Below the pieces are notes generated by a model. It ran no database searches and was not told where the DNA came from. It saw only the letters and a program-made list of their open reading frames with translations. From Escherichia phage Sciku, in the sequence record MK931439.1: 43,130 nt of DNA. The stretch is one strand, 5' to 3'. Below, piece after piece: positions 1,857-40,073 of this stretch. The number at the start of each line of letters is the position of its first letter. Positions within the stretch are counted from its first letter, which is position 1. Position numbers and translations under genes: made by a program.

Positions 1857-3326
1857 ATGTTAACTATGAACGGTCAGAATCAGGGTGTTAAGACAAAACA
1901 CCGGGAATGGCTGCATCACTTTGATAAATGGCAGAAGGTGCGCCATGCGCTGGAAGGCGACCTTATCCGTTACCTGCGTAACGTCGGGAAGAACGAGCCT
2001 GACCCGACTTACGCCGCCCAACGCCAGGAGGAATACGAGAACGGCGCTATCTGCTACAACTTCACCAAGCGCACCCTGTCGGGTATGGTCGGCTCAGTTA
2101 TGAGAAAAGACCCTGAGCAGATTATTCCTCGTGAACTGGAGTACCTGTTACGCAATGCCGACGGTTCTGGTGTTGGCCTGTGGCAGCACGCGCAGGATAC
2201 GCTGATGGAGATTGACTCAGTAGGCCGTGGTGGTTTGCTGGTTGACGCCCCGGAAACAGCCGCAGCAACGGCAGCCGAACAGAACGCCGGATTATTAAAC
2301 CCGGTCATCGCATTCTACACCGCAGAGAACATCATCAACTGGCGACTCACTCGCGTAGGCTCGGTTAACCGCGTCACGATGGTAGTGCTGCGCGAGGTAT
2401 GGGAGTATTCAGAACCTGGTGCGGAGTTTGAAACCAAATTCGGCGAACAATACCGCGTTCTCGACTTGACTGATGGCCGCTACCGCCAGCGCATATACCG
2501 TTTCGATGCCGAAGGTGGTGCGCAGGGTGATGTAAAAGAAATCTTCCCGGAACTGGGCGAACAGTTGCGCGGAAAAATCCCATTCACGTTTATTGGTGCG
2601 AGTAATAACGACGCGACGGTTGATGACGCACCTTTGCTGCCGTTGGCAGAACTCAATATCGGACATTTCCGCAACAGCGCAGACAATGAGGAATCTAGCT
2701 TCGTCGTAGGTCAGCCTACCCTGTTTATCGCCCCAGGCGAGAATATGAGCATGGAGCAGTGGAAAGAGGCCAACCCTCACGGCGTGCGCATGGGTTCACG
2801 TTCAGGCCACAACATCGGCTACGGCGGCAACGCGTTTCTGGTTCAGGCCGGGGAGAATAACCTCGCCAAACAGAACATGCTGGACAAGGAGAATCAGGCC
2901 ATCCAGATCGGCGCGCAGCTTATCACGCCTACCCAGCAAATCACCGCTGAATCCGCCCGCCTGCAACGTGGTGCCGATACTTCCGTAATGGCGACTATCG
3001 CGCGTAACGTAAGCATGGCGTATACAGAGGCGCTGCGCTGGGTAGCTGCGATGCTGGGCCTGCGCGAAGGTGTGGAAATTGAGTTCAAGCTGAATATGGA
3101 GTTCTTCCTGCAACCGATGACTGCGCAAGACCGTGCGCAGTGGATGGCGGACATTAACGCCGGTTTACTTCCTGCAACTGCTTACTACGCCGCGTTGCGT
3201 AAGGCCGGGGTAACTGACTGGACTGACGAGGAGATTACAACGGCGATTGAGGACGCACCTGTGCCGTTAGGTGCTGTTACTCAGGTAGCTGGTGAGATTC
3301 CGCAGTCGGCGCAACAGCAGGAGTAA
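1857..3326 (+). CDS. portal protein
   Basis: 489 aa ORF immediately after terL; size and position typical of portal; no diagnostic motif checked. Confidence 0.7.
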   Translation: MLTMNGQNQGVKTKHREWLHHFDKWQKVRHALEGDLIRYLRNVGKNEPDPTYAAQRQEEYENGAICYNFTKRTLSGMVGSVMRKDPEQIIPRELEYLLRNADGSGVGLWQHAQDTLMEIDSVGRGGLLVDAPETAAATAAEQNAGLLNPVIAFYTAENIINWRLTRVGSVNRVTMVVLREVWEYSEPGAEFETKFGEQYRVLDLTDGRYRQRIYRFDAEGGAQGDVKEIFPELGEQLRGKIPFTFIGASNNDATVDDAPLLPLAELNIGHFRNSADNEESSFVVGQPTLFIAPGENMSMEQWKEANPHGVRMGSRSGHNIGYGGNAFLVQAGENNLAKQNMLDKENQAIQIGAQLITPTQQITAESARLQRGADTSVMATIARNVSMAYTEALRWVAAMLGLREGVEIEFKLNMEFFLQPMTAQDRAQWMADINAGLLPATAYYAALRKAGVTDWTDEEITTAIEDAPVPLGAVTQVAGEIPQSAQQQE

Positions 3327-3331
3327 AGGAA

Positions 3332-3358
3332 AAGGCCCTGTTATGGGGCCTTAGTTTT
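3332..3358. terminator. bidirectional rho-independent terminator
   Basis: AAGGCCC-N7-GGGCCTT hairpin followed by TTTTAT, between convergent portal gene and antisense gene. Confidence 0.6.
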
Positions 3359-3878
3359 ATTTAAATCGTGCGGGTATTAGCACCATAAATGCTGAGTTTG
3401 AAAATGATATTTTGCAACCTCTGGTTTGATCCTGGAAATCGAAACGAGCAATTACATTTTTGTATGCCTTAGAAATCTTGTACGCGTCAGCTAAATACTG
3501 CATAGCGAATCCTATACTATCAACCGCACCTGGCTCGATGCGCGCCACGCGCCTCCAGTCAGGAAAGTTTCCGTCTACAACATCTACCGGAAGTGTACAT
3601 ATAAGAGAACGACTATCGTCATAGAAGGAAACACTGCCGTTGGTATGGTTCACCTCCGCGTAGTTAAATTTAGATGGTTCTCTACCTTTGATGTCTATGA
3701 GAATCCCCTTCTCAACGTTTGTCTTCACATTGTCACAGAACAATCTACGACCATCCGTAGACACTATCAATCCTTCCGGGTCTATGTAAAAAGCGTTCAA
3801 ATAGTAGCGCGCATCATTTTTAGCCCTGCAGATTTTCGCCCCTACATACGCAGGGAAAGTAATAACGGTAGTAATCAT
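3357..3878 (-). CDS. hypothetical protein (antisense moron)
   Basis: 173 aa from ATG at 3878 with AGGAGG RBS 6 nt upstream; opposite strand to all flanking structural genes; no recognisable motif. Confidence 0.55.
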   Translation of the reverse strand: MITTVITFPAYVGAKICRAKNDARYYLNAFYIDPEGLIVSTDGRRLFCDNVKTNVEKGILIDIKGREPSKFNYAEVNHTNGSVSFYDDSRSLICTLPVDVVDGNFPDWRRVARIEPGAVDSIGFAMQYLADAYKISKAYKNVIARFDFQDQTRGCKISFSNSAFMVLIPARFK

Positions 3879-3904
3879 TTTATGCCTCCTGTTTAAGTTA
3901 ACTG

Positions 3905-3934
3905 AATAGTACCCTATTATATTGGTGTCTGCAA
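3905..3934 (-). promoter_or_regulatory. sigma70-like promoter with AATAG-N4-CTATT operator (type B)
   Basis: minus strand: -35 TTGCAG (3934-3929), 17-nt spacer, -10 TACTAT (3911-3906); palindrome AATAGtaccCTATT at 3905-3918. Confidence 0.45.
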
Positions 3935-3978
3935 ATATCATTTTTATGCGTTACACTGACACCACTACAGGAGGGCAT

Positions 3979-5022
3979 ATGAGCTTACTAACATCATTAA
4001 TCAGCCACCAGATTTGGCTGCAACGCACCGCATCCGGTGAAGTGAAGGACCTCACACCATTCATTCAGGAGATGCGAGATGAAATCAAAAGGCAGGTGCT
4101 GTTGTTCGGCGACGACGGGCGGAGCACAGCGCGTCTGAATAAACTATTGCGCGACCTCGAGGAAGCACTTACCGGGCTAACCGGCGACTGGCAGACTAAG
4201 CTGACAGAAGACCTTAAGGAGCTTGCAGCGTATGAGGCTGAGTGGAATGTGAAGACACTCACGGCTAACGTTAATGCGGAATTTGTTACCCCGACCGCTG
4301 AACAGGTGTGGTCCGCCGCCGTGTTTCAACCACTGGCGCTAAGCGAAAAGCCCGTTGACTTCACGAAGCTTATGGAAGGCTGGGGTGAAACGGAAGTAGC
4401 TCGCCTCGTTACCGGCGTTAAGATGGGCTTTGTGCAGGGCCGGACAACACGACAGATTATCAAGAGCGTTGTTGGCAACGGTGGGCTATCGGATAAATCA
4501 GCCAACAACGCCGCCGTTGTAATCCGCACCGCTCTTTCACACGTATCTAACGAAGCCCGTAACGAGACTTATCGACAGAACAGTGACATCATCGAGAAAT
4601 ACGAGTGGGTATCCACGCTTGACAGTCGTACCAGCACAATCTGCAAGGCCAGAGACGGCATGACGTGGGGAATCGGTAAAGGCCCTATGCCCCCAGCCCA
4701 TCCGAATTGTCGAAGTACCACAGCACCTGTAATCAGTTCAGAGTTCTATTTCCTTGACGCGGGCGCAAAACGTGCGGCTAAGGGGGCAGATGGAGGTACA
4801 CAAGTTAGCGCGGATACCACTTATTATGAGTTTCTGAAACAGCAACCAGCGTGGTTTCAGGACCAGGCGTTAGGCCCGGTGCGCGGTAAGATTTTCCGCA
4901 ACAGCGGTATATCGCCGGAAGAGTTTCGCGTAATATCTGTAGATGGTTTCGGGAATCCGCTCACGCTTAAGCAGATGGCGGAACTCGATAAACGTGTTGC
5001 TGATTATCTGAAAGGGGAATAA
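3979..5022 (+). CDS. head morphogenesis / minor head protein
   Basis: ATG at 3979 with AGGAGGG RBS; position after portal typical of Mu F / SPP1 gp7-type proteins; family call is positional. Confidence 0.5.
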   Translation: MSLLTSLISHQIWLQRTASGEVKDLTPFIQEMRDEIKRQVLLFGDDGRSTARLNKLLRDLEEALTGLTGDWQTKLTEDLKELAAYEAEWNVKTLTANVNAEFVTPTAEQVWSAAVFQPLALSEKPVDFTKLMEGWGETEVARLVTGVKMGFVQGRTTRQIIKSVVGNGGLSDKSANNAAVVIRTALSHVSNEARNETYRQNSDIIEKYEWVSTLDSRTSTICKARDGMTWGIGKGPMPPAHPNCRSTTAPVISSEFYFLDAGAKRAAKGADGGTQVSADTTYYEFLKQQPAWFQDQALGPVRGKIFRNSGISPEEFRVISVDGFGNPLTLKQMAELDKRVADYLKGE

Positions 5023-5483
5023 TGATGGGCTTTTTCAAAGTAACTGATGTACCTTCGCGCCGTGTTGTCCAGTACGCCCGCGTGTCAGGCTCCGGCGAGA
5101 ACGTGACCTACGTTGAAGATGAAAGTGTACTGGGTACACCTGTAGACGAGATGCCGTATGCAGATAAAACTGGTATCGCCATCACGGCGGCAGGTATGCT
5201 TTACGAGATTCCGTATCTGGAAGACGCAGGTGACGTGTACTTCTCCGTGCAACCGAAAGACGCGGAACTGGTAGACGGAAGCGCGGTAATCACGGTAGAA
5301 GTTAAGGCGTATAAAGCACCATATTCGCTGACCTGGTACAAAGACGGGAAGGAAGTCGTTAACGCACCAGAAGAAGCTTTGTCTCTGACGGTTAACGCTG
5401 CAGGCGAATACTTCGTTAAAGTTACTGATGCCGATGGTGTAGAGGCTGTGAGTAAAGCGGCGAAGGTTACTAAGCCGGAATAA
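5022..5483 (+). CDS. Ig-like domain protein, possible capsid decoration protein
   Basis: C-terminal YSLTWYKDGKEV...GEYFVKVTDADG resembles an immunoglobulin-like strand pattern; similar motif in 8219-8560. Confidence 0.4.
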   Translation: MMGFFKVTDVPSRRVVQYARVSGSGENVTYVEDESVLGTPVDEMPYADKTGIAITAAGMLYEIPYLEDAGDVYFSVQPKDAELVDGSAVITVEVKAYKAPYSLTWYKDGKEVVNAPEEALSLTVNAAGEYFVKVTDADGVEAVSKAAKVTKPE

Positions 5484-5486
5484 ACT

Positions 5487-5508
5487 AAAGCCCCGAAAGG
5501 GGCTTTTT
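5487..5508 (+). terminator. rho-independent terminator
   Basis: AAAGCCCC-GAAA-GGGGCTTT hairpin followed by TT. Confidence 0.65.
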
Positions 5509-5572
5509 AGCGCCTGTGATTATTCCAGTTATTCCACTCAATTGTAAATGTTGGAATAAACTATTCGAATAG

Positions 5573-5601
5573 TTGACTTTTCACTAAAAATGTGCTAAGC
5601 T
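5573..5601 (+). promoter_or_regulatory. sigma70-like promoter (copy 1 of duplicated promoter-leader unit)
   Basis: TTGACT (5573-5578), 17-nt spacer, TAAGCT (5596-5601); palindrome CTATTCGAATAG abuts the -35 at 5561-5572. Confidence 0.5.
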
Positions 5602-5642
5602 CCACCTGAGCTTGTGAAGTATGAACAAGCGACCGCGGCGCG
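5573..5642 (+). repeat. conserved about 70-bp promoter-leader block, copy 1
   Basis: near-identical to 37503-37572 at a constant offset of 31930; contains a 38-nt identical core CCTGAGCTTGTGAAGTATGAACAAGCGACCGCGGCGCG. Confidence 0.7.
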
Positions 5643-5781
5643 GGCAGGTAACGGAGCGGGACGTAAGTCCTGAGTGTAGTTACGCTGACGCGTTCGGAAG
5701 GGCCATACTCTATTGCTTGTGTAAAAAGTAACTGGTTTACTGAGATTACGCCGTTTCTATGTTTAAATGATAAGGACTAGC

Positions 5782-5808
5782 GCCCAGCTTTAAGGCTGGG
5801 CTTTACTT
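5782..5808 (+). terminator. terminator-like hairpin closing promoter-leader unit 1
   Basis: GCCCAGC-N6-GCTGGGC stem followed by TTTACTT, just upstream of the spanin RBS. Confidence 0.45.
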
Positions 5809-5825
5809 ATCGAGAAAGGAGAAAC

Positions 5826-6212
5826 ATGAATCCTAAAGCAACTGTCGTAGCTGGAGCATGTTTCATCCTCCTGACATACGGCTACGGAATCTACCAGTAT
5901 CGCAGCGGCTGGAACGAAGGCCGGGCGAATCTCGTTTCGCAGCAACAGCAGGAAGCACAGGCTGAGTTAGCGAAGAAAACACAACGGCAGCAGCAGGACG
6001 AATCTAAGGCCGCCGCCGCTGACAACGAAGGCAAGACGAAATCAGAGGTGATTACCCGTGAAGTCGTTAAGTACATTAAAACGCCTGGCCGCAGCGTGTG
6101 CACTTTCGACGATGCTCGCGTCCTGCTCAAGTCCCACGCCGTTGCCAACGCCAATTCCATCCCCGGATACGACGATGATGCAGCCGCCGTGCAAACTGGC
6201 ACCGCCAAGTAG
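5826..6212 (+). CDS. Rz-like inner-membrane spanin
   Basis: N-terminal transmembrane segment VVAGACFILLTYGYGIY then Q/E/K-rich coiled-coil-like region; AAGGAG RBS; Rz1-like gene overlaps in another frame. Confidence 0.6.
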   Translation: MNPKATVVAGACFILLTYGYGIYQYRSGWNEGRANLVSQQQQEAQAELAKKTQRQQQDESKAAAADNEGKTKSEVITREVVKYIKTPGRSVCTFDDARVLLKSHAVANANSIPGYDDDAAAVQTGTAK

Positions 6213-12242: not shown

Positions 12243-12271
12243 GGAAAAGGCCCCGAAAGGGGCCTTTTCCT
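12243..12271. terminator. bidirectional rho-independent terminator
   Basis: AAAAGGCCCC-GAAA-GGGGCCTTTT perfect hairpin with A-run upstream and T-run downstream. Confidence 0.7.
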
Positions 12272-12429
12272 TATTCCTTCAATTGCATTGGGTAGAAGTT
12301 AACGAGTTCTCCTTTATCCCGAAGCCGTGAATATTCATCTAACGCATCTTGCTGGCTACTCACTGCATAAATATCGTTCCACTCGTCCCATTCTTTGTCG
12401 TATACGCGGATTACATATATTGTTTTCAT
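12271..12429 (-). CDS. small hypothetical protein (moron island)
   Basis: 52 aa ORF MKTIYVIRVYDKEWDEW...; starts 8 nt after the upstream stop. Confidence 0.3.
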   Translation of the reverse strand: MKTIYVIRVYDKEWDEWNDIYAVSSQQDALDEYSRLRDKGELVNFYPMQLKE

Positions 12430-12436
12430 AATATTT

Positions 12437-12667
12437 TCACACATCAATGTTACTCCTGTACTCCCGTAACTTCTCCAGGCTTTCGATTGCCTCAGCTAAG
12501 TCTGTCCAGGTGTCCTTGTGACCACGTAAACCCATACACAATAGCTTCTTCAATGCGTGCTGTAACGCCGGGTCGCGTATGTCGAAGGCGCGTAGCACGT
12601 CGTAAACGTCTACAGTCATAGTGCTGCCGTAGGTGTTTGTCATTGTGCGGTTGTATTTATTTGTCAC
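12437..12667 (-). CDS. hypothetical protein (moron island)
   Basis: 76 aa minus-strand ORF; no motif recognised. Confidence 0.4.
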   Translation of the reverse strand: MTNKYNRTMTNTYGSTMTVDVYDVLRAFDIRDPALQHALKKLLCMGLRGHKDTWTDLAEAIESLEKLREYRSNIDV

Positions 12668-12857
12668 TGTTAACTCTCTTAAATCTGGCTATGCCTGACT
12701 CGTTAATGTTGCCTATTTCAAAGAAGCTGCGATATTTAGGCGAATACATTCTTACATCGCCATTCTCTAGGGTGACTCCTTCGTACACCGCACCTACTTC
12801 GAACCCATTTTTCTCTGCATACGGACTTACCTCGGTGCATTCATACATGTCTTTCAT
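12657..12857 (-). CDS. hypothetical protein (moron island)
   Basis: 66 aa minus-strand ORF overlapping both neighbours. Confidence 0.4.
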   Translation of the reverse strand: MKDMYECTEVSPYAEKNGFEVGAVYEGVTLENGDVRMYSPKYRSFFEIGNINESGIARFKRVNSDK

Positions 12858-13984
12858 CCCAGCATCTCCGGTGAAATAGTTAAACGTGCGACCTCGCCGT
12901 ATTCGGCGCTATAAGTAATTACATTTGCACTGCGGCCTGACATCCACCCGCCGCGGGAGGCGTAGGCATCTTTAGCCGCCAGGGTGCGGTGTTGTTCAAC
13001 AATCATGTTACGGCTTTCTACAATCTTTTGGTGGTGCAGGTGACCTACGTGGGCGTAGCTGTAAACACTCTCGCCGAACGCTTTGCGGAACTTGGCAATC
13101 ATAACCGGTTCGATAATGTCGAATCGCGCCTTATGCCCGTGATGAAAGAACAGCGTCGTTTTGCCGTGTTGCACCATCTTGTAAACATCCGGCGACGTGT
13201 CGACAATCACTCGGCTGTCGTTTGAGTATAAAGTCGCGAACATTTCCGCCAGCCATACGGACCCTACAGGATCGTGATTTCCTTGCACGATAAGCAAGCG
13301 AACGGTTTTATGTTTAACCAGCGCCATATCTACAACACGGCGGACCATACGAATCATGTAGCGGACAAGTTTCTGGTAGCGAGTGTCCGCGTCCAACACA
13401 TGACGTGACTCAGGTGTAACGGCGTCCAGACTATCGAAGTGTACGAAGTCTCCTAGCAGATTAATAACCCCTGTTCCTGCATCCGGTGCTTTCTGAAACG
13501 CCGCATCGAACCATCGAGAGAACAGGTCTTCCGCAATCTTCATATCCCAGTCGTCGCCGCTCTCGTCGGCCCATGCCAGCATACCAAGATGAAAATCAGA
13601 CACGGTGTAAAGATTGAGTAGCTTGTCGTCGCGTTTGGCTCGAGTCGCTTTAACAGGAGCAACGGGCGTAATCTCTGACTTCATGCCTTCGATCACGGCT
13701 TTCATCAATTCAACCTGACGTTCGGCATCGGTGTCGGTCTTAACCCATTGCAACTTAGTGTTGCCGAACTCATCCACAAGTGACGACGTTCCTTTAATCT
13801 TGTAGCCGTCCGGCACAAGGTGGCTAACGTCGCGCCCGTGACCTACGCCTTTCTTCGCCAGCTTCGCTTTACGGATACGGATAACGCGGTCTGAGATTCC
13901 ATACTTACGTGCGATATCAATAATTTTTGTTCCGGCGTTCAATTCTTCCCGTAACTGTTCGTCGGTTATTTTCTTATGAGCCAT
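12854..13984 (-). CDS. HTH domain - calcineurin-like metallophosphoesterase fusion protein
   Basis: N-terminal HTH-like IIDIARKYGISDRVIRIRKAK; then metallophosphoesterase signature blocks SDFHLG, GDFVHFD, GNHD, HHGH, GHLHH; GAGGAA RBS. Confidence 0.7.
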   Translation of the reverse strand: MAHKKITDEQLREELNAGTKIIDIARKYGISDRVIRIRKAKLAKKGVGHGRDVSHLVPDGYKIKGTSSLVDEFGNTKLQWVKTDTDAERQVELMKAVIEGMKSEITPVAPVKATRAKRDDKLLNLYTVSDFHLGMLAWADESGDDWDMKIAEDLFSRWFDAAFQKAPDAGTGVINLLGDFVHFDSLDAVTPESRHVLDADTRYQKLVRYMIRMVRRVVDMALVKHKTVRLLIVQGNHDPVGSVWLAEMFATLYSNDSRVIVDTSPDVYKMVQHGKTTLFFHHGHKARFDIIEPVMIAKFRKAFGESVYSYAHVGHLHHQKIVESRNMIVEQHRTLAAKDAYASRGGWMSGRSANVITYSAEYGEVARLTISPEMLG

Positions 13985-14023
13985 GCTTTACTTCCTCGTG
14001 TTTAGGATTTGTCCTATACTAGC

Positions 14024-14215
14024 TCACTTCTCTTTGACGTTCGAGTTGCACGCCCAGATTAAAATAAATACCCACGGCAGCAGAACCCAACCGAGAAACA
14101 GATTAGCCATGAATATCGCTAATTTAGCTTTATGGTTGCGCATATGCGCCACGAGAAATGGGATAAAATAAACTAAAACGATAATGATTAAGAAGAACAT
14201 AGTAATACCTGTCAT
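14024..14215 (-). CDS. small two-TM membrane protein, putative superinfection-immunity (Imm-like) protein
   Basis: 63 aa from ATG 14215 with AGGAGC RBS; two hydrophobic helices; LFLGWVLLPWVFILIWA resembles the Imm-type motif as I recall it. Confidence 0.45.
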   Translation of the reverse strand: MTGITMFFLIIIVLVYFIPFLVAHMRNHKAKLAIFMANLFLGWVLLPWVFILIWACNSNVKEK

Positions 14216-14255
14216 GGTGTAGCTCCTGTTCGAGTTAACATTGTTGGTGTAAGTG

Positions 14256-14285
14256 AATAGTATCCTATTATGTTGGGGTGCGCAA
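14256..14285 (-). promoter_or_regulatory. sigma70-like promoter with AATAG-N4-CTATT operator (type B)
   Basis: minus strand: -35 TTGCGC (14285-14280), 17-nt spacer, -10 TACTAT (14262-14257); 26-bp block here is an exact inverted copy of 37811-37836. Confidence 0.5.
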
Positions 14286-31456: not shown

Positions 31457-31485
31457 ACTATAATAGTTTGCTATTCAGGTGTCAA
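31457..31485 (-). promoter_or_regulatory. sigma70-like promoter with AATAG-N4-CTATT operator (type A)
   Basis: minus strand: -35 TTGACA (31485-31480), 17-nt spacer, -10 TATAGT (31462-31457); palindrome AATAGtttgCTATT 31462-31475. Confidence 0.55.
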
Positions 31486-33916: not shown

Positions 33917-33945
33917 ACTATAATAGCGAACTATTCACTTGTCAA
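33917..33945 (-). promoter_or_regulatory. sigma70-like promoter with AATAG-N4-CTATT operator (type A)
   Basis: minus strand: -35 TTGACA (33945-33940), 17-nt spacer, -10 TATAGT (33922-33917); palindrome AATAGcgaaCTATT 33922-33935. Confidence 0.55.
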
Positions 33946-34009
33946 TGGGTTTTTCTAAAATAATTAATATGGTACTATTCACGCATCAACTAACTAAGGA
34001 GTAACTGAC

Positions 34010-34225
34010 ATGCAACCATCTGAACTAGGCATCCGTGTAGAACAACGCCGTAAAGAACTCGGCATCTCCCAGCGCCGTCTGGCTGTCCTGACTGGCGTTT
34101 CCCAGGGCGCGATTAACCAACTGGCACTTGGGGTAACTCAGGACGTCCGCCCGGCGACGCTGTTTAAACTGGCGGAAGTGCTGGAGATAGACGCCAAGTG
34201 GCTGGCGTTAGGTGAAGGGGCTTAA
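34010..34225 (+). CDS. Cro/CI-type helix-turn-helix transcriptional regulator
   Basis: 71 aa; HTH ISQRRLAVLTGVSQGAINQLALG typical of XRE/Cro family; AAGGAG RBS; only plus-strand gene inside the minus-strand block. Confidence 0.7.
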   Translation: MQPSELGIRVEQRRKELGISQRRLAVLTGVSQGAINQLALGVTQDVRPATLFKLAEVLEIDAKWLALGEGA

Positions 34226-37502: not shown

Positions 37503-37531
37503 TTGACTTTTACTAAGAAATATGGTAAGCT
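37503..37531 (+). promoter_or_regulatory. sigma70-like promoter (copy 2 of duplicated promoter-leader unit)
   Basis: TTGACT (37503-37508), 17-nt spacer, TAAGCT (37526-37531); same architecture as 5573-5601. Confidence 0.5.
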
Positions 37532-37572
37532 CAGCCTGAGCTTGTGAAGTATGAACAAGCGACCGCGGCGCG
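37503..37572 (+). repeat. conserved about 70-bp promoter-leader block, copy 2
   Basis: near-identical to 5573-5642 with the same 38-nt core; weaker similarity continues for about 70 nt. Confidence 0.7.
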
Positions 37573-37717
37573 CGGCAGGCGAAACGAGCACGTGTAGCGT
37601 GTGGAGTGAGGCTCGCTAGCGCGTTTGGGAGGCCCCAAGTCTATTGTAATTCCAGCCTAAGTAGCTAAGTTACTGATTTGCCGTAGGTTAGAACCGCCAG
37701 CTCACTCACTCACTCTT

Positions 37718-37750
37718 GGTGCCTTCGGCACCACGTTCGTTTCGTTTCGC
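37718..37750 (+). terminator. terminator-like hairpin closing promoter-leader unit 2
   Basis: GGTGCC-TTCG-GGCACC hairpin followed by ACGTTCGTTTCGTTTCG; preceded by a (CTCA)x3 repeat. Confidence 0.4.
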
Positions 37751-37800: not shown

Positions 37801-37829
37801 TTGCACACCCCAACATAATAGGATACTAT
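37801..37829 (+). promoter_or_regulatory. sigma70-like promoter with AATAG-N4-CTATT operator (type B)
   Basis: -35 TTGCAC (37801-37806), 17-nt spacer, -10 TACTAT (37824-37829); palindrome AATAGgataCTATT 37817-37830. Confidence 0.5.
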
Positions 37830-37863
37830 TCACTTATCGAAACGAGACAGAGGAGTGAGGGCT

Positions 37864-38733: not shown

Positions 38734-38762
38734 TTGCACGCTGGGGAAGAATAGGATACTAT
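38734..38762 (+). promoter_or_regulatory. sigma70-like promoter with AATAG-N4-CTATT operator (type B)
   Basis: -35 TTGCAC (38734-38739), 17-nt spacer, -10 TACTAT (38757-38762); palindrome AATAGgataCTATT 38750-38763. Confidence 0.5.
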
Positions 38763-38885
38763 TCATTTACACAAACGAGAGGAGAGGCAGAATATGGTTA
38801 CTTTGATGATTATGGAGTTCGAAAACAGCGCTGCAACTTACCGCGACATGTTCAACGAAACGATTAGCTAAGCAGGAGAAATAAG

Positions 38886-39095
38886 ATGGTACAGAGATAC
38901 GAGATAATAAGATGGGGTCTGCCGGAGATGGCTAAGTACCCATACGGTGACTACGTTGAGTATGACAGCTATAAGGAACTGGAGGCCCGACTGGAAGAAG
39001 TCAACGCTGAGTTACAGAAATACAAAGACCAGTTCCCGGATTACGTCGAGTGCGCGAACTGCGGGTCGGTTACACATGTGGAAGGGGTGGATTGA
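38886..39095 (+). CDS. small hypothetical protein, paralog A (MVQRY family)
   Basis: 69 aa; N-terminus MVQRYEI and Y-x-EY-x-SY-x-ELEA pattern shared with the next gene. Confidence 0.45.
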   Translation: MVQRYEIIRWGLPEMAKYPYGDYVEYDSYKELEARLEEVNAELQKYKDQFPDYVECANCGSVTHVEGVD

Positions 39096-39349
39096 TGGTG
39101 CAGAGATACGACTTAACAGAATACTACGTGAGTGGTGCGGTAGATATAACGCCTGTCCCGGACTCGCATGAAGGGCGTTATGTAAGCTACGAAGACTACG
39201 CGCAACTCGAAGCTGAACTCATGAAAGTAAAAGCCGCAGCCCGTTGTCTTGTGCGAGAAGCAGGTAAGGTGTATAGCGATTATAGTGACGTTATAGCACC
39301 TGAGTTTGTAGACCAGCAAACCATACACGAACTAGGTATTCTGTTATGA
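39095..39349 (+). CDS. small hypothetical protein, paralog B (MVQRY family)
   Basis: 84 aa from ATG 39095; N-terminus MVQRYDL; same pattern as 38886-39095. Confidence 0.45.
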   Translation: MVQRYDLTEYYVSGAVDITPVPDSHEGRYVSYEDYAQLEAELMKVKAAARCLVREAGKVYSDYSDVIAPEFVDQQTIHELGILL

Positions 39350-39639
39350 GCCTTGCAACTGACATCCTGAAACGCAGCGGCCTTGCGCCGCTGTCGCCGA
39401 GAGCAAACACTCAGATATACAAGCGCCGCCGTAATACGCTGTACCCAGAGATACAGGAACGACGTAAAGCTATCCGCGCCTGTGGATTCCAGAACGGGAA
39501 GGCCGTGAATCTCGGTGAGTTTAAAACACAAGAACGCGCCGCAATCGCTAATCGACTATTTAATTACTGGAAATCGCTGGGGTACGATGATATTCCGACG
39601 AAACCCCAGAGACGACAATACATCTGGAGGCACAAATGA
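39346..39639 (+). CDS. hypothetical protein
   Basis: 97 aa basic ORF with ATGA overlaps on both sides. Confidence 0.4.
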   Translation: MSLATDILKRSGLAPLSPRANTQIYKRRRNTLYPEIQERRKAIRACGFQNGKAVNLGEFKTQERAAIANRLFNYWKSLGYDDIPTKPQRRQYIWRHK

Positions 39640-40073
39640 CTACTATCGCGTTTGACGGAAAGACGATGGCCTGTGACACCCGAGTAACCGGAGACCACAT
39701 CTACAACACAGATACCAAGATATATGAGAACGAGTTTGTTGTTATCGGTGTAGCAGGCAATGCTGAGGCTGGTATCCTTTTAGTGAAGGACGATAGTATT
39801 TTAGTGCCTAAGCACTACGATTTTGATTTCTCTGCTTTGGTGTGGGTTAAAGACATCGAAACGTTGTGCAAAGTAGAATTCTATAAATCATGGGATTGTG
39901 CACTAAGTTCGGTTATCCCTGTTGCAGATGGTTTTGCCGCCGTCGGTTCCGGTGCACCTTATGCACTGGCGGCTATGTATTTAGGTAATACGGCAACACG
40001 TGCAATTACTATAGCAGAGCAATTCGACCCTAACACCGGCGGCAATATTATTACCAAACAACTATTAGGATAA
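39636..40073 (+). CDS. HslV-like (proteasome-type Ntn-hydrolase) peptidase
   Basis: N-terminal MTTIAFDG with Thr2 as candidate nucleophile; GVAGNAEAG and AVGSGAPYALAA align with HslV GFAGGTADA and GSGGPYAQAA as recalled; 145 aa; GGAGG RBS. Confidence 0.6.
   Translation: MTTIAFDGKTMACDTRVTGDHIYNTDTKIYENEFVVIGVAGNAEAGILLVKDDSILVPKHYDFDFSALVWVKDIETLCKVEFYKSWDCALSSVIPVADGFAAVGSGAPYALAAMYLGNTATRAITIAEQFDPNTGGNIITKQLLG

Follow-up and report, generated by a model that had tools for sequence, protein, structure and literature searches.

The antisense gene that separates the portal and head-morphogenesis genes of Escherichia phage Sciku is clearly a DnaN-derived fragment of the beta sliding clamp, reduced to 173 aa and 19.5 kDa, which we refer to here as the mini-clamp. 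The beta clamp is the bacterial docking hub for proteins of replication, repair and cell-cycle control and is a target of antibiotics. In alignments of the large phage family to which the mini-clamp belongs, the residues kept most strictly are those of the pocket that receives the clamp-binding motif.

The DNA analysed, hereafter the window, is the whole 43,130-nucleotide stretch of sequence record MK931439.1. It is 99.9% identical over its whole length to Escherichia phage Shashou (MK931440; Kagunavirus, Guernseyvirinae), the exception being a 1,020-bp deletion relative to Shashou positions 38849-39868, and between 3000 and 4300 the identity to the Shashou record is 100%. The Shashou copy of the gene, CPT_Shashou_004, carries the HHpred-based GenBank label 'DNA polymerase III sliding clamp'. 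The mechanical minus-strand ORF covers 3357..3941 (194 aa); a start at the ATG at 3878 gives the 173-aa product, agrees with the GenBank CDS and RBS in Shashou and fits the N-termini of all homologues. A first-pass annotation of the window had proposed an antisense gene of this length between two neighbouring morphogenesis genes, with a strong AGGAGG RBS, an operator-bearing promoter and a bidirectional terminator, and all four were recovered. Gene, RBS, promoter and two-way terminator are in place at the coordinates in Table 1, and they amount to more than chance. The terminator, which had been drawn over 3332-3358, is a hairpin at 3332-3352 that is terminator-like on both strands, with 9 pairs, the tail AGTTTTATTT and -13.5 kcal/mol on the + strand and 7 pairs, the tail TTCCTTTACT and -11.3 kcal/mol on the - strand. 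A near-identical hairpin accompanies the gene in fPoEco01 and Snoke, and the Snoke record annotates terminators on both strands. No RNA families were found in the window in Rfam.

Comparison with the fPoEco01 and Snoke copies indicates purifying selection on the mini-clamp gene (dN/dS 0.14-0.16, dS ~0.39). The gene was detected by tblastn in 228 phage records, of which 207 have it intact across 80% or more of its length. Its G+C content is 42.7%, compared with 50.1% for the window and 55.3% and 52.5% for the flanking genes.

Table 1. Coordinates of the mini-clamp cassette and of related features in the window
Feature	Coordinates	Strand	Remarks
Accessory cassette (terminator, antisense gene, operator/promoter)	3327..3950	both	boundaries approximate; from junction comparisons
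Intrinsic-terminator-like hairpin	3332..3352	both	AAGGCCC(tgttatg)GGGCCTT; U-rich tails on each side
CDS of the 173-aa mini beta-clamp	3357..3878	-	stop codon 3357-3359
aa 115-173, domain III C-terminal motif (DnaN 312-366)	3360..3536	-	Y128, I168-P169-A-R171; profile aligned over 115-171
aa 56-114, domain II motif 2 (~DnaN 190-250)	3537..3713	-	ends V101-D-G-N-F-P106-D-W-R-R110-V111; HMM alignment, model, conservation
aa 1-55, domain II motif 1 (~DnaN 136-186)	3714..3878	-	beta-alpha-beta-beta-beta; R24-Y25-Y26-L27-N28, T41-D42-G43-R44-R45-L46; HMM alignment, model, conservation table
Shine-Dalgarno AGGAGG	3885..3890	-	six bases before ATG 3878; also the annotated RBS in Shashou
Operator-like palindrome	3905..3918	both	AATAG-TACC-CTATT; overlaps the -10
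Promoter	3906..3934	-	-35 TTGCAG (3934-3929), 17-nt spacer, -10 TACTAT (3911-3906); one of four copies in the window
Gene behind four-copy promoter: mini-clamp	ATG 3878		
Genes behind four-copy promoter: superinfection-immunity/phosphatase island	ATG 14215		
Genes behind four-copy promoter: two blocks of small genes	ATG 37864, ATG 38794		

The first-pass annotation recognised no motif in the translation. This statement could not be upheld: phmmer, a family HMM and Foldseek each identify a beta-clamp fragment, and GenBank already speaks of a clamp. In a phmmer search of PDB sequences the protein matched E. coli DnaN in three collinear pieces, namely residues 16-48 with DnaN 144-179 (RYYLN...TDGHRL), residues 99-117 with 235-253 (VDGRFPDYRRV), and residues 116-171 with 311-365, where the C-terminus reads ...VVMPMR. 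A profile built from 114 family members aligned with E. coli DnaN in two blocks, 137-260 (E 1e-21) and 312-366 (E 4.4e-7), and in the PDB it matched full-length beta clamps only, the enterobacterial clamps scoring highest. AlphaFold2 predicts a compact fold (pLDDT 95.4, pTM 0.91), and a Foldseek search with this model returned E. coli beta clamps as all of its top PDB matches, so that the structure prediction proposed in the first-pass annotation led to the clamp fold. No family member with a solved structure was found in the PDB by Foldseek and profile searches.

Domain libraries describe the protein less well. Pfam gave no match to the 173-aa protein even at E<=10; for some relatives PF02767, the central domain, is precomputed. 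TIGR00663, the NCBIfam model for DnaN, scored 15.1 bits against a cut-off of 137.65 and covered only profile positions 146-247. PHROG 3007 was matched over its full length (E 2.3e-33; residues 13-172 aligned with positions 12-186 of the 190-position profile). This family bears the label 'RusA-like Holliday junction resolvase', which was rejected, the fold being that of a clamp and the RusA family (PF05866) giving no Pfam match; the misannotation has propagated to RefSeq records. The PADLOC defence models contained no families for the mini-clamp at E<=1. By its repeated beta-alpha-beta-beta-beta motifs the protein belongs to the DNA clamp fold superfamily, and in its sequence the hydrophobic cleft that receives clamp-binding motifs between domains II and III of DnaN is kept. 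It lacks the three-domain organisation of about 366 aa that defines DnaN (TIGR00663; PF00712, PF02767 and PF02768) and the head-to-tail dimer interface, both segments of which are missing from the family HMM alignment. Neither label now in use for the family fits the sequence evidence: 'DNA polymerase III sliding clamp', that is, a complete clamp, overstates the protein, and 'RusA-like' misstates it.

In the family HMM alignment the mini-clamp is without domain I and without DnaN 254-311. The dimer interface of DnaN is made by domain I and residues 272/273, the I272A/L273A mutant being monomeric (PDB 1JQJ/1JQL), and with both regions gone the canonical head-to-tail interface is therefore absent. 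In the model, domain II motif 2 has no inner helix, and residues 64-72 are coil. The peptide cleft of the clamp is formed by domain II motif 1 (R152, L155, T172-L177), the linker between domains II and III (P242, R246, V247) and the last motif of domain III (Y323, V360-R365) (PMC3716654). From these assignments of cleft and interface residues, the order of motifs around the ring would be IIb-IIa-IIIb-IIIa-I'b and the three retained motifs would be spatial neighbours. The mini-clamp would thus correspond to one uninterrupted quarter of the ring that has the docking cleft at its centre, with the removed parts flanking it on both sides. The half of domain III that is left should expose a surface that is normally packed on the missing half, a hint of oligomerisation.

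Conservation was assessed in 145 members with at most 50% mutual identity, taking columns conserved at ~85% or more. There are 15 such columns, R24, Y26, L27, G29, T41, G43, H44, I60, G103, P106, R110, Y128, M168, P169 and R171, equivalent in DnaN to R152, Y154, L155, G157, T172, G174, H175, I194, G239, P242, R246, Y323, M362, P363 and R365. Eleven of the 15 are in a list of 20 pocket residues (hypergeometric p 5e-9), and 7 of the 10 residues named in the paper on the UmuC-clamp structure (PMC3716654) are among the 15 (p 1e-6). The C-termini of distant members resemble that of E. coli DnaN: IMPMRL in Dhillonvirus, VVMPMRL in Skatevirus and IVMPMRI in phage ZCKP8. The Shashou copy departs from the family at three conserved pocket positions, with A29, R44 and I168 at the places of G157, H175 and M362, and its closest relatives have H44 and M168. 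Pocket residues are the best conserved in true clamps as well, and their retention fits any function that uses the pocket, polymerase tethering included.

The family is very large, and no function has been reported for it in the literature searched. Profile searches found 1,024 proteins in a collection clustered at 90% (95-206 aa in the 120 listed) and 6,434 matches at E<=1e-10 among 50%-identity representatives (110-234 aa in the best 150 listed). In BFVD, short structural twins occur in phages of Serratia, Pantoea and Burkholderia, with TM-scores of at most 0.88, and weaker short matches in phages of Rhodococcus, Gordonia, Bacillus and Xanthomonas, beside full-length phage clamps. The literature searches returned no functional study of short phage clamps, the mentions being routine genome annotation; the paper on the fBC-Eco01 genome, for example, treats the protein as a standard clamp (PMC9825357).

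In other phages, too, the gene is found in antisense islands within the structural gene block, a short one in Dhillonvirus WF5505. In Skatevirus LPST10, Deseoctovirus DS8 and Klebsiella phage ZCKP8 it is last or next to last in the island, behind genes annotated as an acidic 'anti-restriction' protein and a ParB-like protein, neighbours that are typical company for early host takeover. Drexlerviridae were at one stage considered as carriers and were dropped, as the records examined belong to Skatevirus, Deseoctovirus and one unclassified phage. In Klebsiella and Salmonella prophages the gene follows a CI-like repressor and heads an operon of a PD-(D/E)XK exonuclease, an Enc34-type SSB, a variable slot and PolA; this position beside exonuclease, SSB and PolA in enterobacterial prophages is as compatible with a part in replication as with one in takeover. 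Shashou also encodes PolA, and no DNA polymerase is annotated anywhere in the genome of LPST10. With carriers of both kinds, the mini-clamp is therefore not tied to one polymerase.

The promoter of the mini-clamp belongs to a small set within the window. The pattern TTGC[AG][CG]-N17-TACTAT occurs exactly four times, and every copy lies 27-41 nt upstream of a Shine-Dalgarno sequence and ATG on the same strand. In all four, a palindrome AATAG-N4-CTATT overlaps the -10. The same palindrome is found inside the spacer of consensus promoters of the form TTGACA-17-TATAGT at 31460 and 33920, the latter adjoining a cro-like gene, and the window contains 7 copies of an 18-nt core, TGAATAGTACCCTATTAT, where 0.04 would be expected. 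The mini-clamp promoter thus shares its operator with the other non-structural promoters of the phage. A generic sigma-70 scan did not list the promoter at 3905-3934, because its hexamers match only 7 of 12 consensus positions; the four-copy pattern, and the conservation of the element upstream of the gene in fPoEco01 and Snoke, bear out its assignment in the first-pass annotation. The element is also kept in M01. In Kagunavirus fBC-Eco01 the same consensus has been described as a repeated promoter motif (PMC9825357). We had also considered the repeated motif as a + strand promoter of the head-morphogenesis gene, since its orientation as written runs with the gene blocks. This was dropped after its copies were mapped to the neighbouring genes: the four of 'class 2' are opposite-strand promoters, each followed by a Shine-Dalgarno sequence and ATG. 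Inspection of 3900-3978 by eye yielded only weak candidates for a + strand promoter of the head-morphogenesis gene.

Comparison of the portal junction among related genomes, a check that the first-pass annotation had proposed, revealed an exchangeable slot. In K1G and fPoEco01 the portal and head-morphogenesis genes are parted only by a short intergenic terminator, AGCCCCGAAAGGGGCT, on the scale of 36 nt in K1G, and the mini-clamp gene is absent from K1G. Other cargo occupies this junction in two further phages: a 217-aa 'amidase' in EcoPhCCP1, and in M01 a same-frame antisense ORF of 93 aa whose promoter element is identical and whose terminator stem is similar. The cassette itself is present there in 6 of the 110 records that match 3000-4300. 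Copies at 60% identity or more were found in 26 phage records, compared with the 110 that match the portal-to-head-morphogenesis query, and in 11 of the 30 related records listed the match is limited to query 331-939 (or 331-928), equivalent to 3330-3938 in the window, and is located elsewhere in the genome. The cassette of fPoEco01 and Snoke, hairpin and promoter included, follows the decoration-protein gene and replaces the terminator found there in the window; comparison of the junctions in K1G, in fPoEco01 and at 5440-5840 of the window indicates that the whole intergenic segment is exchanged. In Salmonella phage SE1 the gene lies behind small ORFs that carry no annotation, upstream of the gene preceding that of the major capsid protein, which is the scaffold position in Shashou; its promoter differs, being an operator-bearing TTGACA-17-TATTGT with an ACAATA/TATTGT palindrome. 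The cassette thus occupies three different slots in the head modules of Guernseyvirinae, the gene always being antisense to the head genes. As judged from these sequence comparisons, the gene is accessory in the subfamily, and the cassette is a self-contained, horizontally mobile unit of a virulent Kagunavirus.

The first-pass annotation called this unit a moron, which in the strict sense is a gene expressed from a prophage. Part of the description stands: like the morons of temperate phages, the cassette is an extra, self-contained unit that has a promoter and a terminator of its own and separates genes lying side by side in relatives; its base composition deviates towards low G+C, and its slot exchanges cargo. 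It does not belong to the prophage-expressed class of the Hendrix/Juhala definition, however, for its carrier is virulent and its promoter comes from the phage's own operator-controlled set. The record of Shashou, a Kagunavirus, has no annotated integrase or repressor, and no lysogeny-associated genes were reported for Kagunavirus fBC-Eco01 (PMC9825357). 'Moron-like accessory cassette' is the accurate term. The hairpin had also been taken to tie in with an antitermination hypothesis, transcription of the portal and head-morphogenesis genes having to pass it. A terminator hairpin stands at this junction in K1G as well, where the site is empty, so that transcription has to read through or re-initiate whether or not the cassette is there, and the cassette adds no specific evidence for antitermination.

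As the strictest conservation in the family falls on residues of the cleft, a soluble, non-ring, peptide-binding module is the most likely form of the protein. Our preferred reading, to which we give slightly less than even credence, is of a soluble pocket module outside any ring, made early, carried on a mobile cassette, and capturing or recruiting host clamp-binding proteins. Host RNA polymerase would transcribe the mini-clamp gene early in infection from the operator-controlled promoter, beginning near 3899 and stopping at the hairpin at 3332-3352, and the Cro-like repressor, encoded at about 34010-34225, would later shut off its expression. In its non-ring state the protein would be a free peptide-binding module, the pocket of which would bind peptides with clamp-binding motifs of the QL[SD]LF type. 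No canonical motif of this kind was found in the Shashou proteome or in the co-transcribed neighbours in other phages, one weak hexapeptide in a 45-aa protein being the sole match, and the ligands are therefore probably host clamp partners. These would be the proteins that dock on the beta clamp, such as polymerases, clamp-loader delta, Hda and MutS/MutL, and the mini-clamp would act either as a decoy that captures them or as an adaptor that brings a partner to phage DNA. That the gene is present in LPST10, where no polymerase is annotated, speaks against Pol III being blocked in general; since a general sink for host Pol III would harm a polymerase-less phage, the ligand must be something narrower than 'all clamp partners'. 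We tentatively extend this reading, with more doubt than belief, to an unstudied large family of 'quarter-ring' clamp fragments in phages of many hosts, which would be free docking pockets, that is, soluble decoys or adaptors that rewire the host clamp-interaction network. In a more radical variant, four copies would assemble into a ring, a subunit architecture never seen in sliding clamps.

Other explanations of a short clamp with a conserved pocket were weighed against the capture or recruitment of host proteins. It is unlikely that the mini-clamp is a genuine processivity factor of unusual assembly, either a ring of four quarter-rings, such as a D2 tetramer with a pseudo-domain made up of two domain-III halves, or a non-ring tether like herpesvirus UL42 that holds PolA or Pol III through the pocket. 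In principle a ring could be closed by four quarter-rings, and the half of domain III that lies exposed lends itself to pairing, but domain I and DnaN 254-311 are gone, the interface residues 272/273 with them, the model shows domain II without its second inner helix, and no clamp-loader gene is annotated in the phage. Neither PolA nor the other phage proteins have a recognisable clamp-binding motif, and family members have pI values between 4.8 and 9.5 (median 7.0), so that a basic DNA-binding face is not conserved. The gene is, moreover, dispensable in the genus, K1G and most relatives having the same replication genes without the mini-clamp. We think it rather improbable that the protein is a decoy in counter-defence or competition, which, as an imitation of the clamp's docking site, would divert a clamp-dependent host nuclease or immune effector or would starve co-infecting elements of clamp partners, and would leave the phage's own replication unaffected. 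Its patchy, cassette-like distribution in exchangeable cargo slots is in keeping with such a role, as are its co-transcription with acidic 'anti-restriction' and ParB-like proteins in Skatevirus, Deseoctovirus and ZCKP8, the use of the same promoter class for an island with a superinfection-immunity gene, and the direct binding of RecBCD to the clamp that is reported in a 2025 preprint (10.1101/2025.08.20.671105). Against it, there was no PADLOC match, no known anti-defence family was matched, and the anti-restriction association is one of annotation only.

The clamp fold might also have been re-used for a partner that has no clamp-binding motif, such as a phage helicase-primase or exonuclease, the pocket residues merely stabilising the junction of domains II and III. 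Residues G157, I194, G239, D238 and D243 do look structural rather than ligand-contacting, and R44 and I168 are tolerated in the Shashou copy. We nevertheless consider this improbable, for the ligand-contacting residues R152, H175, R246, M362, P363 and R365 (PMC3716654) are 85-99% conserved among sequences that are otherwise less than 50% identical, and the DnaN C-terminus MPMRL is kept exactly in distant members. It is highly improbable that the gene is a functionless, decaying remnant of a captured dnaN. The protein is truncated relative to DnaN and the metagenomic relative P0015 is frameshifted, but a dN/dS of 0.14-0.16, the 6,434 cluster representatives at E<=1e-10, the strong RBS, the dedicated promoter, the terminator and the confident, compact predicted fold all speak against decay, and this reading appears to be effectively refuted by the conservation data already.

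A natural, widespread protein consisting of the docking cleft only would give a handle on those clamp partners that are important in phage infection, and would be ready for use both in competing with clamp interactions and, as a minimal scaffold, in studies of pocket binding. If the mini-clamp is indeed a decoy or adaptor, takeover would proceed by imitation of the binding site of a hub instead of by blocking the hub. The locus is also a clean case of an exchangeable antisense cargo slot, made up of a terminator and an operator-controlled promoter, in the head-gene module of a virulent phage.

Among known systems, E. coli DnaN (PDB 1MMI/2POL) forms a closed ring around DNA that is lined by 12 helices and loaded by the clamp loader. 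The mini-clamp differs from it in size (173 vs 366 aa), in the loss of domain I and of the first half of domain III, in the inner helix missing from the model, and in being carried on a mobile phage cassette and non-essential in the genus. Full-length phage clamps, such as T4 gp45 and the DnaN homologues of 345-406 aa, are complete ring subunits that use phage or host loaders, whereas the mini-clamp is a quarter-ring with no annotated loader. The herpesvirus processivity factors UL42, UL44, BMRF1 and PF-8 consist of two complete domains and have a basic DNA-binding face that is conserved; in the mini-clamp family, in contrast, basic character is not conserved, and no partner motif is detectable in the phage polymerase. 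The nearest analogues appear to be E. coli beta* and phage clamp inhibitors such as Gp168 of Staphylococcus phage Twort. Beta* is a short, UV-inducible version of E. coli DnaN (26 kDa) that is produced from a start within the gene, reportedly described by Skaliter and by Paz-Elizur and colleagues in 1996, which keeps domains II and III complete and reportedly forms a ring-like oligomer that is still active as a clamp. Like beta*, the mini-clamp is a natural, N-terminally truncated clamp that is without domain I and keeps the docking pocket; unlike beta*, it also lacks half of domain III and constitutes a separate gene family. Gp168 (PDB 7EVP) is a small, clamp-binding inhibitor and an unrelated protein, which binds the clamp, whereas the mini-clamp would imitate the clamp's own docking site.

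Judged by comparison of the phage sequences, the junction between the portal and head-morphogenesis genes, at which the window carries the mini-clamp cassette, is an exchangeable cargo slot. In phage M01 (L004 1820-2250) the promoter element is the same and the terminator stem similar, and they frame a 93-aa ORF at the junction; in EcoPhCCP1 (L019 1554-2207) an antisense 217-aa 'amidase' is found there, and in K1G the slot is empty. The tail-gene block of the window contains a second antisense island (12245-14285) with the same architecture as the cassette and a promoter of the same class.

An 18-nt core, TGAATAGTACCCTATTAT, is present in 7 copies in the window when up to 3 mismatches are allowed. 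The AATAG-N4-CTATT palindrome is intact in 6/7 copies, the remaining one (33964-33981) having ATATT as its second half-site. The copies sort into two promoter classes, that is, TTGACA-17-TATAGT, in which the palindrome lies inside the spacer, and TTGCRC-17-TACTAT, in which it overlaps the -10. The region of the cro-like gene is flanked by two of the seven copies, suggesting a single repressor regulon.

Coordinates of features in the window and in enterobacterial prophages
Feature	Coordinates	Strand	Remarks
Island, two-way terminator	12245-12268	both	tail-gene block
Island, genes		minus	small ORFs, phosphodiesterase, Ser/Thr phosphatase-like protein, T4 Imm-like superinfection immunity protein
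Island, promoter	-35 14285-14280; -10 14262-14257	minus	
Copies of the 18-nt core	3905-3918, 14256-14269, 31462-31475, 33922-33935, 33966-33979, 37817-37830, 38750-38763		core search of window
R44 codon	3747-3749		mini-clamp CDS
I168 codon	3375-3377		mini-clamp CDS
Prophage SSB-PolA slot	L008 9556-10580; L011 10181-11662; L012 10120-10758		comparison of collinear prophages

Two paralogous elements on the + strand of the window (5564-5810 and 37503-37745) form a candidate pair of phage small RNAs. Each consists of a good promoter (TTGACT-17-TAAGCT) followed by approximately 200 nt and a terminal hairpin. Identity is 91% over the first ~75 nt, beyond which only islands are conserved and some of the changes are pair-preserving. 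GenBank places tiny ORFs at both, 007 (+) and 056 (-), and an Rfam search gave no matches for either element.

The window and the Shashou record, MK931440, differ: they share 99.9% identity (41 mismatches, 3 gap openings), and 1,020 bp of the record (38849-39868), containing small hypothetical genes 062-065, are missing at window position 38850. At pocket positions 44 and 168 the residues of the Shashou mini-clamp are Arg and Ile, whereas 92-94% of the family, the nearest relatives among them, carry His and Met there. These positions correspond to H175 and M362 of DnaN, the latter being the gate residue, and the substitutions could reflect either an altered ligand preference or a slight relaxation of selection.

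Many phage records of this clamp-fold protein, RefSeq NC_054645, NC_054650 and NC_071150 among them, have taken over its PHROG 3007 label, 'RusA-like Holliday junction resolvase'. In the DS8 record the product is named 'RusA-like', yet the attached note describes a beta clamp.

In enterobacterial prophages that are otherwise collinear, a variable slot separates the Enc34-type SSB gene from the PolA gene. Its cargo is alternatively a Band_7, SIR2_2 or Nmad5 protein, and on this gene content the slot looks like a defence-gene hotspot.
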